Shown here in pieces: positions 15,001 through 20,341 of a stretch of DNA of 20,341 nucleotides. A program made the position numbers. How positions within the stretch are numbered: position 1 is the stretch's first letter; each line of letters begins with the position of its first letter. The DNA comes from a virus (taxonomy: Duplodnaviria; Heunggongvirae; Uroviricota; Caudoviricetes), in IMG/VR virus record IMGVR_UViG_2617270976_000004, positions 1 through 20,341 of that record. The stretch is one strand, 5' to 3'.

Positions 15001-18000
15001 ATTCCAGGTGCTGAAGGCGGTGCAGGAGAATATCCGTAAAACTGGCGGAAAAATAGATGACAGCAATAACGCCTATATGGCTGAAGAACTCTTCCACGGG
15101 AAGGCGGAAAACGACCTGAACGTAATGAAGGAGCGCTACGTTCAGCCGCTGGCCAAATTGCTGGCGGACTACAAAATTGCGCAGGCCGATCTGGATGAGT
15201 ACCTCTACGCCCGTCACGCGCCGGAACGTAACGCGCATATTGCGAAAATCAACCCGAAAATGCCGGACGGCGGTTCGGGGATGACCAACGCGGAAGCGGC
15301 GGAAATCATGCAGCGTGTGCGTAACAGCGGCAAACAGGCACAGTATGACCGTCTGGCAGGGATTATTGACGATATGCTGGCCCGTCGCCGTGAGATTATC
15401 CGTGAGGCAGGACTGGAAGAGAGCGGCGTGGTGGATGCCTGGCAGAAAGCCTACCGTTACTACGTCCCCCTGAAAGGGCAGGATGTTGACGGTGTGGTGT
15501 CACAGCCACGTACAGGCAAGGGATTCACCATCGGCGGGCGTGAAAGTAAGCAGGCCATGGGGCGTGCATCCCGCGCACAGTCTCCTTCCACTCAGGCGAT
15601 ACAGGATTTGAGTGAATCGCTGATCCGCAATCGCAAAAATGAAGTGGGTAACGCCTTCCTGAAACTGGTACAGGATAATCCCGACAAGGATTACTGGCAG
15701 GTATTCACTGATGACAGACCGGATACAATGCGTGTGATTGCAGAGCGCAAGGACCAGGAAACTGGTGAAACCATTCGCGAAGTTGTCGAGCGCCCTGTGC
15801 CGATGGCAATGATGGCGGATCGCTACTTCACCACCAAAAAGGACGGCAAAACTTACTACATTAAACTTCATGATCCGCGCCTGATGCGTGCGATGAAGAA
15901 CATGGGGCCGGAAACCAGTAACGCCGTAATCCGTACGCTGGGGAAAGTTAACCGCTTCCTGGCAACGGTGAACACGTCGTATAACCCGGAATTTCTGGTC
16001 AGTAACTTCATCCGTGACGTGCAGACTGCGGTGATGAACCTGAAGGCTGAGCAGGGAAGAAGCGACGGCAAACTGAAAGGGCTGGATAACTTATCCGCGC
16101 TGGCTGTGGTGAAAGACAGCCGTTCCGCCATGTCAGCCGTATACGCAAGTCTGCGGGGTAAAACCCTCACGGGCAAAGGCGCACAGTGGCAGAAAGTGTG
16201 GAAAGAGTTTGTTGAGGACGGAGGTAAAACCGGCTGGTTTAACATGGGTGACCTTGAAGGCCAGCAGAAGGAAATGGATCGCCTTGTGTCGCTGGCGAAG
16301 GGCGGATGGAAAGGCCAGAGTATCGGTGCATGGCATTCGTTCCTGAACCTGGTCGAGGATGCCAACGGCGCGGTTGAAAACGCTCTGCGTCTTTCTGCCT
16401 ATAAACACGCCCGTGATGCCGGTTTGTCACGCCAGCAGGCGGCATCTCTTGCCAAAAACATGACGGTGAACTTTAACCGTCGTGGTGAGCAGGGAGCGCT
16501 GATGAACTCGCTGTATATGTTTGCCAACGCCAGCATTCAGGGGACCGCAAACCTGGTGAGAACGCTCGGACATCTTAATGGCGACGGGCCGTTACTGGAG
16601 CGCCTTCGCTGGAAGAATCTCAATGTACCGCAGAAAATCGCGCTTGCAGCTGTGGGAGCGGGTTATCTGCTTGGCTCGCTTAACCGCAGTGTGGCGGGGG
16701 AGGATGATGACGGGGTTAACTGGTACGACAAGGGGTCGTATCATGTGAAAGAGCGTAACCTCGTCATTATGAAATCGATGTTCGGGGGCAGGGCCGGAGA
16801 GTACTGGAGTATTCCTCTGCCTTACGGGTACAACGTTTTCTTCCTGCTCGGGCATACCTCTGAAGGTGTGGCTGCTGGTGACCTGACGGCGTCCCGTGCT
16901 GCCGGTAATGTTGTCGGTGGTATCCTGGGGGCATTCAGCCCGATTGGCAGTGAGACGTCGGAAACGCTGTCCGGGGCATTGCTGAAAAATGCAGCACCGA
17001 CAATTCTGCGTCCGTTTGCGAATCTTGCCATGAACGAAAACTTCATGGGGGCGCAGATTTACCAGGAGAACATGCCGTTTGGTACACCAAAACCTGACAG
17101 CCAGCTGGGAAGACGTTCAACGCCAGAAGCGTACAAGGCGTTTGCATTCTGGCTGAATGCGTTCTCAGGTGGCAGCCAGTATCGTCCCGGCGCGGTGGAT
17201 ATCACACCGGAATCGCTGAAATTCTGGATTGACTATATCTCCGGAGGGACAGGGCGCTTCATTTCCAAAACCACGGATGCGGCGGTGAAATCGCTGAATG
17301 GTATTGATATACCGGAACAGCAGGTGCCCTTCCTGGGGAAAATTTCGGGTGAGGTGATGCCGTATGCAGACCAGCAGAAGATGTACGACCGGATGACAGA
17401 GGTTGCGCAGTATCACGCAGAGCTGAAGAGTCTGACCGGTGCAGAAAGAACGGCGTTCATTGACGAGAACAACGGAAAATTGTTGATGAACGGGCTTATG
17501 CAGGATACCCGGAAGAGACTGAAGGATTTGCGCAAACAGCGCGATGCCATTTATGCCGACAGTTCTCTCAGTCTGGCGCAGCAGGCGGCGATGGTGAAAT
17601 CGGTAGAGCGGGATATGAAGGTTGCCGTGGATCGGTTTAACCGCGAGTACAACAAAAAAGTGGGAGTGGATTAACAGAAATGGCCCCGTACGGAAGTGCG
17701 GGGCTGATTAAGAAATAAACACACATTAACCTGTAATAACCGGAGCTATTAACATATAGTCAGAAAGAGTATTTCATGTGAGACAGAGAGCCGATTTATG
17801 TTTAATGAAGAAAAAGTTGCGCAAATGGCAGCGTATTTGCTGAAAAAGCATGGCGGATCTATGCGTTTCATTAAGCTGATGAAGCTGATGTATCTCTCTG
17901 ACCGCAAAGCAATGGAGTCTTTAACCGGGAAGGGGAGAGGTTTGAATGCTCCCCACAATTCCCCGGCATCAAATCTCCATGCAGGTGAACTATTTTACCC

Positions 18001-20341
18001 CCAGCGGCAAATCGCAAAAACAATCAGTGCGATCGAAATGGCAGCCACTACAATTGCAAATGCTTCAGGCTAGGTCATTGGCGTACCTCCTTCGGCGGTT
18101 CTGGTAGCGGCATCCAGAACAAGGCATTCCCTAACCACGATAAAGTGCCGTCGCTCAACTCCACGTATTCCCCTTGTACCTGTCCTGCCATATACTCGCC
18201 GTGCTTTGAATAAATTAAAATCCAATCATCTTGAGCGGGCATTCGCGCACTACAGCTTATCCAACCATCCGGAGTTACCGGCACTGGCTGAGCGGTATAA
18301 AGCGGTGTTATATCTGCCCGAAAATTACATGCTTTATGCAGCCGCACCCACCGTTCGACTTCTGCTTTGTCAGGATACATACCAGTGAACGTGTTATATT
18401 CACGGTCAATTTGCGTGAAGGTTACCTTCCACGCCACCGGCTCTGCCTCAAGCGATGCCAGTGCAATTCGTGCCAGTTCTTCCGCTTCTTCTGCTGGCAG
18501 TACAACGTTGCTACCAGGTCCGTATGTTTCGCGCCACTGTTTGATTGTCAGCAGTCGCCCTTTGGTAATAGTGATCATGCCGCGTTTCCTTCTTTCTTAT
18601 TAACAATCACACCGTCATATATTTCATTAAGGTGCCCTCTCAACTCCATGCGCCTTAATGCAGATAACATGTAATCGCATTCAACCTGCTTATTCCCAGT
18701 AAATGGCTTATCGTCAGGATTACCCCAACAGCAATTACCCTTGGGCCACCCATGTACTTTCCGTACTCTTCCGTTAACAACGTGAAGTAATCCCCAGCCA
18801 GGTGGTAAATCCTCAATTGAAATAATTCCCGGCTCACTAATAAAGAATCGCCAGTCGCCCATTCCAAGAGACGGATTTTTACGAAAACGCTTTTTTCTAT
18901 CTGCTAACAAGTCAGCACGAGAACACTTCGCCTCTATCAGGCATGATGCTGAATTTCTGAATCCCATAGCATCTGGCTGTTCTCCGGTACTGGTTACAGC
19001 TATAAAGCGGTCATGAAAACAAACCTTGAACCCGTTGCGCTTAAGGAACTTGTACGCAATCTGACAGAGTTCGTGGTGTGTTAACGCCATATCACTCTCC
19101 TTTGATGCGAATGCCTGTTGCAATGCTGTTTATGATGCTGTCAGTGCATGGGGTAGAAAGCTGGGCATCTCCAGCAATTTTCATGACCTCAACATCTGCA
19201 TATCGAATACCGAGGTGTATCAGACCGGCTATGCCTGACTTAAGCCGAGCATTTTCCATAAATAGAACTTTTGCCCGCTGTTTTTCTGCTTCAAGCTCAA
19301 CGCGCAGCTTCCCTACCGTTAGCGCAATATCCTCGTTCTCCTGATCGCGGCTTTTGATGTATTGCAGGTTTCTTTCCCGTTCATCCAGCAGTGCCAGCAC
19401 GGTTTCTGGTCCGGTCAGAAATTTGAAGGCGTTGAGCGCATCAATATCCACACCGTAATCTTTAAGTTCCTGTTCACTTAACAAGTCATCATCAGCTGGC
19501 AACATTAACAGGCGTTCCATTGCTGGAATTGCACGTTCCGCCACCTCACGCAGTGCCTGGTAATTAATTTCGCTCACTGGTTGCCTCCTTTGCGAAGCTG
19601 GGCAGCAAAGTCAACTAACCACTCAGTCATTTCAACCTTCCCTACCAGGTCTGAACCAGGGTGCATACAGCAATCACTCTGCGCCGCTTTGAAATCCTTA
19701 TACTCATATTCTTGGGCCACCAGATTTTTTGCAGCTTCTATAGCAGCATCCACCCCCTGCGCCCGGACTTCAGCCAGGAAAGCATCAGTGGTTGGCGTTT
19801 CAGGTATCTGTCTCCTCATCCGTTCTATTGCATGATTGAACCCGAAGTCTTCCGCGAGAGATACGTCATCCATATTGTCATTGTCATCTTCAATATCCCG
19901 TGATTCTGGAATTGCAGACTTTATTCCCGCATTCTCCGCTGCCAGCGCCGCGCACTTGGCCTCAAGAGCGGCAACCACTTCCTGATGGTCTTTGTACTTA
20001 ACGTATGAGCCGGAGATGTCATCACCTTCGGTGTTTAGCCATGCGTCATTGCAATTCACTGCGTAGGTTCTGATGCTCATGTTGATGCTCTCCCGCCCCT
20101 GACAGATGCCAGGCCAGTCAATAAAGTATCCGCACAATGCCTACCCTCAGACGTGCGCGCAGGATAAATGCCGTTATGACCCGGCAAAATATATGCTACC
20201 CATTCATCTTGCGTTGCCTGTTCCGCCGCCTCGCGCAGTGCCTGATAGTCAATCTTGCTCACTGGCAGCCTCCTTTGCCGGGATTTCTAACTTTTGAGTG
20301 GTTGTATCAAATTCAAACAACTTAACCACGTCATCAAACAG

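Follow-up and report, generated by a model that had tools for sequence, protein, structure and literature searches.

The segment at 17675–18075 of the stretch of viral DNA analyzed here (the window; 20,341 nucleotides, Caudoviricetes, IMG/VR record IMGVR_UViG_2617270976_000004) would be the place where the rightward late block and the leftward accessory block of a 933W-like temperate phage converge, the latter, between the tail genes and attP, being the putative counterpart of the lambda b region. The genes int and attP would not have been deleted but would lie at the upstream end of the leftward block, outside the window. The junction would act as a hot spot of cargo swapping, occupied by a near-full-length panA gene in some relatives and by L0135, L0136 and hokW/sokW in 933W types, and the lineage of the window would have lost panA apart from 40 codons. 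A hairpin at 17682–17705 would close the late transcript, a 77-bp filler would bear a second hairpin, with both possibly serving as transcript ends, and a small conserved gene on the minus strand, translationally coupled to that for DUF551 and encoding a membrane peptide of 27 aa with one helix, would be inactivated here at codon 3. Taken as a whole (converging blocks, cargo swapping, int and attP beyond the window, a panA stub, a null mini-ORF and an accidental 91-aa ORF), this account is considered highly probable.

Layout of the Junction

The coordinates reported in the initial annotation for the end of the giant gene (17674) and the end of the minus-strand gene (18075), and the 91-aa ORF itself, were all reproduced in the ORF list. 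The junction is framed by the following features:

9323–17674, plus strand: giant late gene, 2783 aa, from the ORF list and aligned with its counterparts in 75/02 Stx, 933W and HUSEC2011
17682–17705, plus strand: strong stem-loop, GGCCCCGTAC-GGAA-GTGCGGGGCT, with a 10-bp stem and a GGAA loop, found by folding
18075–18578, minus strand: DUF551 gene, 167 aa, from Pfam (E-value 7.8e-9) and the annotations of relatives

The giant gene, which is annotated in relatives as an LPD5/LPD38 domain protein, ends the rightward late block. The DUF551 gene is the final full-size member of the leftward accessory block; upstream of it, the window holds a 182-aa unknown gene and Ead/Ea22 genes, and the block continues in the relatives with DUF4752, TraR/DksA and Ant, followed by attP.

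The hairpin that had been noticed in the junction proved to be real. It starts 7 nt past the stop codon of the giant gene, it is kept in all five aligned relatives, and on the plus strand it folds with a dG of −20.5 kcal/mol (z = −5.5), a value equaled by none of 200 shuffles; the minus-strand fold is weaker (−13.5, z −3.25). The G+C-rich stem-loop expected of an intrinsic terminator is present, the U-tract after the stem is absent (the plus-strand tail is GATTAAGAAA) and, without it, the structure is not a canonical intrinsic terminator. A terminator-like element or a stabilizer of the 3′ end is the probable role. The terminator scan did not call the site because the T-run is absent, and returned only two weak sites, both inside the 91-aa ORF and with no excess over shuffles. 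The promoter scan of 17400–18400 gave zero sites, with no sigma-70-like promoter, and the Rfam search (E ≤ 1) produced no family near threshold, its two matches being sub-threshold and due to chance. With regard to the tRNA and tmRNA 3′ ends whose comparison with the junction had been proposed, ARAGORN found neither a tRNA nor a tmRNA gene in the junction or elsewhere in the window.

Position of the Integration Module

The lack of integrase and excisionase at the junction, from which the initial annotation had started, extends to the whole window: the best tblastn match had an E-value of 0.11, the queries being four integrases (75/02, HUSEC2011, YeP1 and WGPS2), the excisionase of WGPS2 and the DUF4222 protein that adjoins int in HUSEC2011. 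This had been read as consistent with the deletion of an integration module, or with a phage-plasmid or permuted genome, the late and early-left genes then adjoining with neither int nor att between them. No int, xis, tRNA or recognizable att was found within the window, which agrees with such a loss, but all relatives examined share the same gene order, and in each of them att closes the minus-strand block on its far side. The underlying premise, that int and xis are the last minus-strand genes beside the late operon, is inapplicable to the 933W-type group, judging from the gene order of its members. Nor does it hold for lambda, in which ea47, ea31 and ea59 lie beyond attP.

The comparison of the flanks with related prophages, which had also been suggested, placed att to the right of the junction and int beyond att or at the other prophage end, with int/att found either 3.5–5.7 kb right of the junction or at the opposite end. 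The attR core of 933W comes after L0136–L0142, at a distance of 4.2 kb to the right of the giant gene. The circular 75/02 Stx record runs from DUF551 to Ant, antA/B, the record origin and then int; some 4.2 kb separate int from the junction on its left in this phage, and the window end at 20341 falls, in 75/02 coordinates, about 1.9 kb short of the int position. The minus-strand block of the prophages integrated beside ynfF in E. coli HUSEC2011, G1/2 and FORC_069 ends at a split ynfG adjoining ynfF, and in HUSEC2011 an intact intD occupies the opposite prophage end. Similarly, 75/02 and POCJ13 are reported to integrate in ynfG (PMC5447701). The loss of the module, or a phage-plasmid or permuted genome, is consequently regarded as very improbable, and the supposed missing integration module as a false lead, now removed.

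For the source phage itself, the Ant–attR segment and the far-end int are extrapolated from relatives, as the window ends at 20341, and would be expected beyond that point. No exact match to the right 1.2 kb of the window was found among complete genomes. The longest string common to the attL and attR flanks of HUSEC2011 has 9 nt, is unconvincing as a ynfG att core and is absent from the window.

Remnant of a panA Gene

Between the stem-loop and the DUF551 gene, the following features were delimited:

17798–18073, plus strand: 91-aa ORF with an ATG start (phrog_3658), from the decomposition of the reading frame
17798–17917, plus strand: 5′ stub of panA (SocA/Panacea antitoxin), codons 1–40, a pseudogene remnant recognized by homology to full-length relatives
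17873–17890, plus strand: two tandem copies of AAGCTGATG (KLMKLM), from alignments and verified in the sequence
17918–17994, strand not assigned: lineage-specific filler with an imperfect hairpin at 17925–17967 and a C-run at 17951–17954, from the alignments of relatives
17995–18078, minus strand: hydrophobic mini-ORF of 27 codons, MT-stop-PEAFAIVVAAISIALIVFAICRWG-stop, from sequence and conservation
18085–18092, minus strand: Shine-Dalgarno sequence AAGGAGGT of the mini-ORF, within the final codons of the DUF551 gene, from sequence

The first 45 or so residues of the 91-aa ORF had been described as Panacea-like. The homology is real and its extent is shorter, covering residues 1–40. No Pfam family was matched by the ORF (E ≤ 1) or by residues 1–45 (E ≤ 10), the proposed HMM search against Panacea gave no match above the gathering score, and no NCBIfam family was matched by the ORF or its Panacea fragment; the homology was therefore shown via full-length relatives. 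Over residues 1–40, identity with the N-terminus of QCW23372 of Yersinia phage YeP1, a SocA_Panacea protein (PF13274, E 7.7e-21), amounts to 73% (E 2e-11). The DNA at 17675–17918 is 95.5% identical to loci of G1/2 and PhiR5_2 annotated by PGAP as 'Panacea domain-containing protein', an identity that extends over the upstream intergenic region, and the panA gene at this same locus is near full length both in phage PhiR5_2 and in E. coli G1/2 (174 aa from Met10; PF13274 at 2.4e-19). In PHROGs, residues 1–41 weakly match phrog_1281 (E 2e-4), the family of the G1/2 protein. Homology to proven members of the Panacea family (YeP1, G1/2 and PhiR5_2) is thus established for residues 1–40. It stops after 17917 in the comparison with the G1/2 and PhiR5_2 genes, and the PF13274 domain begins at residue 27 in YeP1, so that the stub keeps only about 14 of the 113 Panacea domain positions and lacks a complete domain.

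Phage-borne PanA proteins of PanAT type II toxin-antitoxin pairs have been described (Kurata et al. 2022, PMC8832971). The fragment resembles PanA (PF13274) in its homologous N-terminus and, as with those phage-borne proteins, in its moron position within a temperate phage, but it differs in matching no HMM, in having no adjacent toxin gene and in being a pseudogene stub presumably unable to neutralize anything. No co-oriented PanT gene adjoins it, the next gene being the convergent DUF551 gene, and there is no plus-strand ORF of at least 30 aa near the stub apart from overlapping frames. An overlapping gene of 135 aa lies downstream of panA in YeP1, whereas none is present in G1/2 and PhiR5_2, whose longer copies depart further from PanAT in carrying TAA at codon 9 with a restart at Met10. 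The stub of the window is presumably inert.

One copy of the 9-bp AAGCTGATG repeat is gone in 75/02, POCJ13, 933W, G1/2 and PhiR5_2. A new insertion in the window was considered for this doubling and rejected, since YeP1 encodes KLMKLL; the doubled state is ancestral and the relatives have deleted one copy.

A Null Allele of a Probable 27-Codon Minus-Strand Gene

The consensus form of the mini-ORF reads MTWPEAF...ICRWG, and the copy in the window has a TGG-to-TAG (amber) change at codon 3, which makes it a naturally occurring null allele. All eight TAG alleles are found with one and the same 3′ haplotype of DUF551, which points to a single origin of the amber. The ATG overlaps the TGA of DUF551 as ATGA, and in every upstream context GGAGG precedes the ATG by 7–10 nt. 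Of 119 viral-contig copies, 105 are intact, with a length of 27 codons. Among 5426 E. coli genomes, 1338 (about 25% of complete genomes) contain the module, which occupies 3141 places in them, with up to seven copies per genome. A scan of genome contigs, in which each species is represented by one genome, found the mini-ORF in E. coli and Shigella flexneri alone and so constrains its distribution only weakly.

Differences among the copies fall at the three codon positions as 53/38/102, and synonymous and non-synonymous changes number 68/89 in frame; off frame, the counts are 15/125 and 24/123 (Fisher p 2e-10 and 3e-7, the sequences not being independent). Identity is 0.88 within the mini-ORF, 0.54 upstream and 0.37 downstream. 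The family thus shows a fixed length, a third-position excess, an in-frame synonymous excess and a Shine-Dalgarno sequence with a start codon, as expected of a coding ORF; the window's own copy fails as such owing to the TAG at codon 3. Translation of the mini-ORF, coupled to the upstream gene, is suggested by these features.

The peptide consists of one hydrophobic helix (mean Kyte-Doolittle 2.1–3.1 over residues 7–24) with a charged C-terminus. No significant family was found in Pfam, NCBIfam or PHROG (the best match, KdpF, had an E of 0.024, under its cut-off), sources name the peptide only 'prophage protein' or 'hypothetical protein', and its strings are absent from the searchable literature. 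On balance, the module at 17995–18078 probably represents an undescribed family of 27-aa single-pass membrane peptides of E. coli/Shigella lambdoid prophages, always coupled through ATGA and GGAGG to the preceding early-left gene. The family is the only mildly novel item of the junction and belongs to no database family. It is short with a single hydrophobic helix, as are KdpF-type subunits and the type I toxins Ibs, ShoB and DinQ, but it shows no conserved antisense partner and, unlike the free-standing type I toxins, is coupled to an upstream gene. If made, the peptide might affect the activity of a host membrane protein or take part in exclusion or in the timing of lysis. The 27-codon gene, common yet missing from most annotations and with a clean coding signature, can serve as a concrete candidate for small-protein work in Stx and related prophages. 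A fusion of the mini-ORF with DUF551, raised by its co-clustering with DUF551 proteins of 121 and 185 aa, was rejected as a clustering artefact, these proteins ending in ...PEPPQEVNQ.

A regulatory role of the junction was also weighed, in which a residual panA promoter would drive an antisense RNA over the mini-ORF and the 3′ end of DUF551 and, by convergent transcription, control the leftward block in a manner akin to type I toxin-antitoxin pairs. The plus-strand ORF region is indeed antisense to a gene for a small hydrophobic peptide, and toxin-antitoxin cargo lies directly 3′ of the mini-ORF copies in two examined contexts (hokW/sokW in 933W and a TA pair in ArgO145). Nevertheless, 17400–18400 offers no sigma-70-like promoter, the sequence 3′ of the mini-ORF is wholly different from context to context (identity 0.37), so that it brings along no conserved antisense partner, and the mini-ORF of the window is already a null allele, so that such a role appears improbable.

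The 91-aa ORF as a Chimera

The 91-aa ORF is composed of three parts: codons 1–40 are the panA stub, codons 41–66 the filler and codons 67–91 the antisense of the minus-strand mini-ORF. The filler, whose minus strand folds at −32.3 kcal/mol (z −2.3), gave no matches left of query position 67 (window 17984) beyond 43 junction-bearing E. coli genomes plus 75/02 and POCJ13. The length of the C-run varies among relatives, and the difference between C4 and C5 switches the plus-strand ORF between 91 aa and 60 or 63 aa; the frame variants are the 60-aa form of 75/02, a 63-aa form present on at least 1000 contigs and in FORC_069, and the 91-aa form of 508 contigs, and these changes of tail occur among relatives more than 98% identical. 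A single C-to-T change at 18071, within a CTAG palindrome, creates both the stop of the 91-aa ORF and the amber of the mini-ORF. Homology to different relatives breaks at 17885, 17917 and 17993, and from these discrete breakpoints and the chimeric ORF the junction is recognized as a recombination scar, one of the readings put forward in the initial annotation. A match of the ORF to a full-length known family, which had been held to speak against the initial annotation, exists only trivially, as phrog_3658 is the ORF's own cluster, with function unknown.

A functional small protein, such as a neo-functionalized PanA N-terminal helix with a new tail, might be proposed on the basis of the ATG start, the exact sequence on 508 contigs, the end-to-end match to a 91-aa family in PHROGs (E 2.2e-63) and the initial 27 codons, which dozens of 933W-type phages have in common with 100% conservation. 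An equal degree of conservation is seen over 120 bp of non-coding DNA upstream, as expected under recent common descent, and the spread of the exact sequence with its own PHROG is compatible with clonal spread, although alone it does not exclude expression. Moreover, the frame of the tail follows homopolymer length among near-identical relatives, the last 25 codons are antisense to a mini-ORF with its own coding signature, the stop codon is owed solely to the opposite-strand amber mutation, and neither a Pfam or NCBIfam domain nor a promoter-like site accompanies the ORF. A function for the ORF is accordingly judged unlikely, and it is most probably an accidental read-through of junction pieces that encodes nothing functional, a reading drawn from sequence comparison. 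The 'hypothetical protein' phrog_3658/WP_000481378 would thereby be explained as a chimeric relic propagated by annotation pipelines.

Relatives and the Accessory Hot Spot

The phage of the window is a 933W-like (Sepvirinae) prophage, with a gene order common to 933W, 75/02 Stx, POCJ13 and PhiR5_2 and to the prophages of HUSEC2011, G1/2 and FORC_069. An identity of the window with the O104:H4 Stx2a phage was considered and rejected: in the matching HUSEC2011 prophage, located in ynfG, the interval from Q to the holin is free of stx, and past 19115 the window and this prophage diverge. The region from L0134 to attR in 933W (L0135, L0136, hokW/sokW and L0139–L0142) has the same position and flanking genes as that of the window, namely the giant gene on the left and DUF551, Ead/Ea22, TraR/DksA and Ant on the right. 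Likewise, the lambda b region consists of dispensable accessory DNA that separates the tail genes from attP, and its leftward genes are on the side of att away from int. In the genomes compared, the site after the giant gene of 933W-type phages appears to be a spot at which toxin-antitoxin-type cargo, panA or hok/sok, is swapped. In contrast to 933W, the lineage of the window lacks L0135, L0136 and hokW/sokW, which in 933W account for about 1.17 kb from the equivalent of 17885 to that of 17993, and retains 11 more panA codons.

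Gene content of the junction and its relatives

The junction between the giant gene and the DUF551 gene (17675-18075) is an unremarkable site of cargo exchange in 933W-like phages. The giant gene end, the 91-aa ORF, the end of the minus-strand gene and the hairpin reported in the initial annotation were all confirmed by the ORF list and by folding, and its suggestion of a recombination scar was right, since homology breaks at 17885, 17917/17918 and 17993 and the ORF is chimeric.

Features at and around the junction
9323-17674, plus strand: giant gene, 2783 aa (ORF list)
17682-17705: stem-loop with a 10-bp stem and a GGAA loop, starting seven nt past the giant gene stop
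17798-18073, plus strand: 91-aa ORF with an ATG start (ORF list)
17873-17890: KLMKLM, two copies of AAGCTGATG
17995-18078, minus strand: hydrophobic mini-ORF (MTWPEAF...ICRWG)
18075-18578, minus strand: DUF551 gene, 167 aa (ORF list; DUF551 E 7.8e-9)
19092-19577, 19574-20137 and 20077-20262: two or three Ead/Ea22-like ORFs, the last an N-terminal-like piece

The stem-loop displayed a folding energy of -20.5 kcal/mol (z = -5.5), and its minus-strand fold was distinctly less stable; a U-tract is absent, and the terminator scan made no call there. Upstream of the DUF551 gene, the minus strand encodes a 182-aa protein of unknown function and carries two Ead/Ea22-like genes. As tail-fibre, tail-tip and Lom-like genes occupy the left portion of the window, the interval is fairly termed a late-to-accessory junction.

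Shigella phage 75/02 Stx (Sepvirinae) was found to be 98.6% identical to the junction and its flanks, and 933W, VT2-Sakai and numerous further short-tailed Stx phages share the first 386 bp of a 17500-18700 query at about 96-97%. A prophage of E. coli O104:H4 strains matches the 401-bp junction at 100% identity, and its HUSEC2011 copy presents 99.9% identity over window positions 9675-19115 and diverges past 19115. The right end (19115-20341) is mosaic, departing from both HUSEC2011 and 75/02 after about 19115, and the last 1.2 kb has an exact match in no complete E. coli genome. The window-matching O104:H4 prophage (loci L014, HUSEC2011 1893000-1930000, and L009) occupies ynfG and carries no stx gene in the interval from Q to the holin; it is thus a 933W-like prophage that is stx-negative and differs from the Stx2a phage of the outbreak.

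Position of the integration module

The absence of int and xis from the junction, noted in the initial annotation, is real: tblastn of the window with four integrases, one excisionase and the int-adjacent DUF4222 protein of HUSEC2011 returned nothing (best E 0.11). No tRNAs were found, and Rfam gave no match near threshold. In the lambda map, ea47, ea31 and ea59 lie beyond attP relative to int, and the minus-strand block of the window is the counterpart of this lambda b region; with int and att farther right in relatives, their absence at the junction is expected. Comparison of the flanks with related prophages located att and int beyond the minus-strand block or at the opposite prophage end. 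The order in 933W is giant gene L0134, L0135 (plus), then minus-strand L0136, hokW/mokW and L0139-L0142, the attR core following only after the latter, 4.2 kb downstream. The minus-strand block of 75/02 (DUF551, hypothetical, Ead/Ea22, DUF4752, DksA-like, Ant, antA/B) reaches the end of the circular record, and the integrase is the first gene past the origin. This puts int some 4.2 kb to the right of where the DUF551 gene stops, at roughly window-equivalent 22,200, outside the window, which ends at 20,341. In the HUSEC2011, G1/2 and FORC_069 chromosomes the block stops at a ynfG fragment adjoining ynfF, and in HUSEC2011 an intact intD lies at the opposite prophage end, beside the other part of ynfG. 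Phages 75/02 and POCJ13 are reported to integrate in ynfG (PMC5447701). The other readings first offered, loss of the integration module, a phage-plasmid and genome permutation, are very probably wrong, as nothing points to them.

The panA remnant

The Panacea-like start of the 91-aa ORF stood through homology, over 40 rather than some 45 residues: an alignment of residues 1-40 with the N-terminal end of a 186-aa protein from Yersinia phage YeP1 gave 73% identity (E 2e-11), and that protein is itself a SocA_Panacea member (E 7.7e-21). The proposed HMM search came back empty, Pfam and NCBIfam matching neither the 91-aa ORF nor its first 45 residues. A 135-aa gene that overlaps the YeP1 Panacea gene lies just downstream of it, and the two together adjoin the integrase. 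In phage PhiR5_2 and in a number of E. coli prophages, G1/2 among them, a 174-aa Panacea-domain gene (PF13274, 2.4e-19) occupies exactly this position after the giant gene; DNA of this type matches the window from within the giant gene to 17917/17918 and diverges totally beyond. Phages of the 933W type retain only about 29 panA codons, breaking at 17885, and have about 1.17 kb (L0135, L0136, hokW/sokW) before homology returns at 17993. The KLMKLM of the window is ancestral, because YeP1 shares both copies; one AAGCTGATG copy was lost in all other E. coli and Shigella versions. The panA genes of G1/2 (L008 7124-7675) and PhiR5_2 (L007 5001-5552) lack one KLM repeat, have TAA at codon 9, are annotated from Met10 and have no toxin gene next to them. 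Opposite them stand IbrB/IbrA-like genes, not the DUF551 block. With about 14 of 113 domain positions kept and the toxin partner absent, the window copy appears from its sequence to be a dead stub.

Toxin-antitoxin-type cargo was also seen at similar spots in 933W (hokW/sokW; L002 6585-7754), in ArgO145 (an annotated pair directly 3' of its mini-ORF copy; L012 866-1377) and in YeP1 (panA and the 135-aa gene beside int; L005 3001-3965).

Composition of the 91-aa ORF

The ORF combines the panA stub (codons 1-40), lineage-specific filler (codons 41-66) and the antisense of the mini-ORF (codons 67-91). The filler contains an imperfect hairpin (17925-17967), and no outside match extends left of 17984. 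A single CTAG palindrome (18070-18073) supplies both the stop of the 91-aa ORF (18071-18073) and the mini-ORF amber (18072-18070); had position 18071 kept its ancestral C, the plus-strand frame would extend over 196 codons, passing antisense across the DUF551 gene. The C-run at 17951-17954 has four Cs in the window and five in 75/02, POCJ13 and FORC_069, which results in ORF lengths of 60 or 63 aa; contigs with the 63-aa form number at least 1000, versus 508 for the 91-aa form. The ORF tail is thus not frame-conserved. Phrog_3658, whose match spans the whole 91-aa ORF, groups copies of this relic itself.

A conserved 27-codon mini-ORF

The module at 17993-18080 is found again in many Stx phages and in other lambdoid phages; four annotated records place it, unannotated, directly 3' of some minus-strand gene, whichever that is. 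Its 27-codon minus-strand ORF is preceded by GGAGG, and the ORF's ATG shares nucleotides with the stop codon of the gene upstream (ATGA). Copies lie at 7754-7841 of L002 (933W), 2025-2110 of L010, 1501-1585 of L012 (ArgO145) and 1501-1580 of L013. The reading is MTWPEAFANVGTVMAVVLVVYSICRWR in 933W and Sakai, MTWPDAFAIVGVAMSIALIVFAICRWG in WGPS2, MTWPEAFTTVGIAMAVALVVYSICRWG in ArgO145 and 666R9, and MT*PEAFAIVVAAISIALIVFAICRWG in the window, where codon 3 is TAG in place of TGG. Among 119 viral-contig copies, 105 were intact at exactly 27 codons and eight had TAG. All TAG alleles share one DUF551 3' haplotype (...LPEPPKEVRQ*), suggesting one mutational origin followed by spread through descent and recombination.

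The search pattern fixes the first 20 nt, and the counts and identities given here come from the unconstrained remainder. Differences from the consensus at codon positions 1, 2 and 3 numbered 53, 38 and 102. Synonymous/non-synonymous counts were 68/89 in frame versus 15/125 and 24/123 in the other frames; as the copies are related, p-values for this coding signal are indicative only. Mean pairwise identity fell from 0.88 within the mini-ORF to 0.54 over the 60 nt preceding it and 0.37 over the 60 nt that follow. Of 5426 complete E. coli genomes, 1338 (~25%) carry the module, at 3141 places in all; among species representatives, it was found only in E. coli and Shigella flexneri. The mini-ORF matched no Pfam, NCBIfam or PHROG family, its product is named only 'prophage protein' or 'hypothetical protein' in sources, and its peptide strings are absent from the searchable literature. 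A fusion with DUF551 was considered, the 27-aa peptide sitting in 90%-identity clusters led by 121-aa and 185-aa DUF551 proteins, and was rejected: these representatives do not contain the peptide, and the grouping seems to be an artefact that arose when adjacent or overlapping genes were clustered. The mini-ORF is worth carrying forward as a conserved, largely unannotated candidate membrane-peptide gene, of which the window holds a null allele.

Other observations

The O104:H4 ynfG prophage also bears hokD, RelE/ParE-like and Doc-family toxin-antitoxin genes. A Lom/Ail-family outer-membrane protein gene (5718-6455) lies inside the tail region of the window, and the left edge (14-1148) encodes the C-terminal end of a tail fibre, which carries an endosialidase-chaperone (Peptidase_S74) domain; next comes the N-terminal domain of a Gp38-like adhesin.
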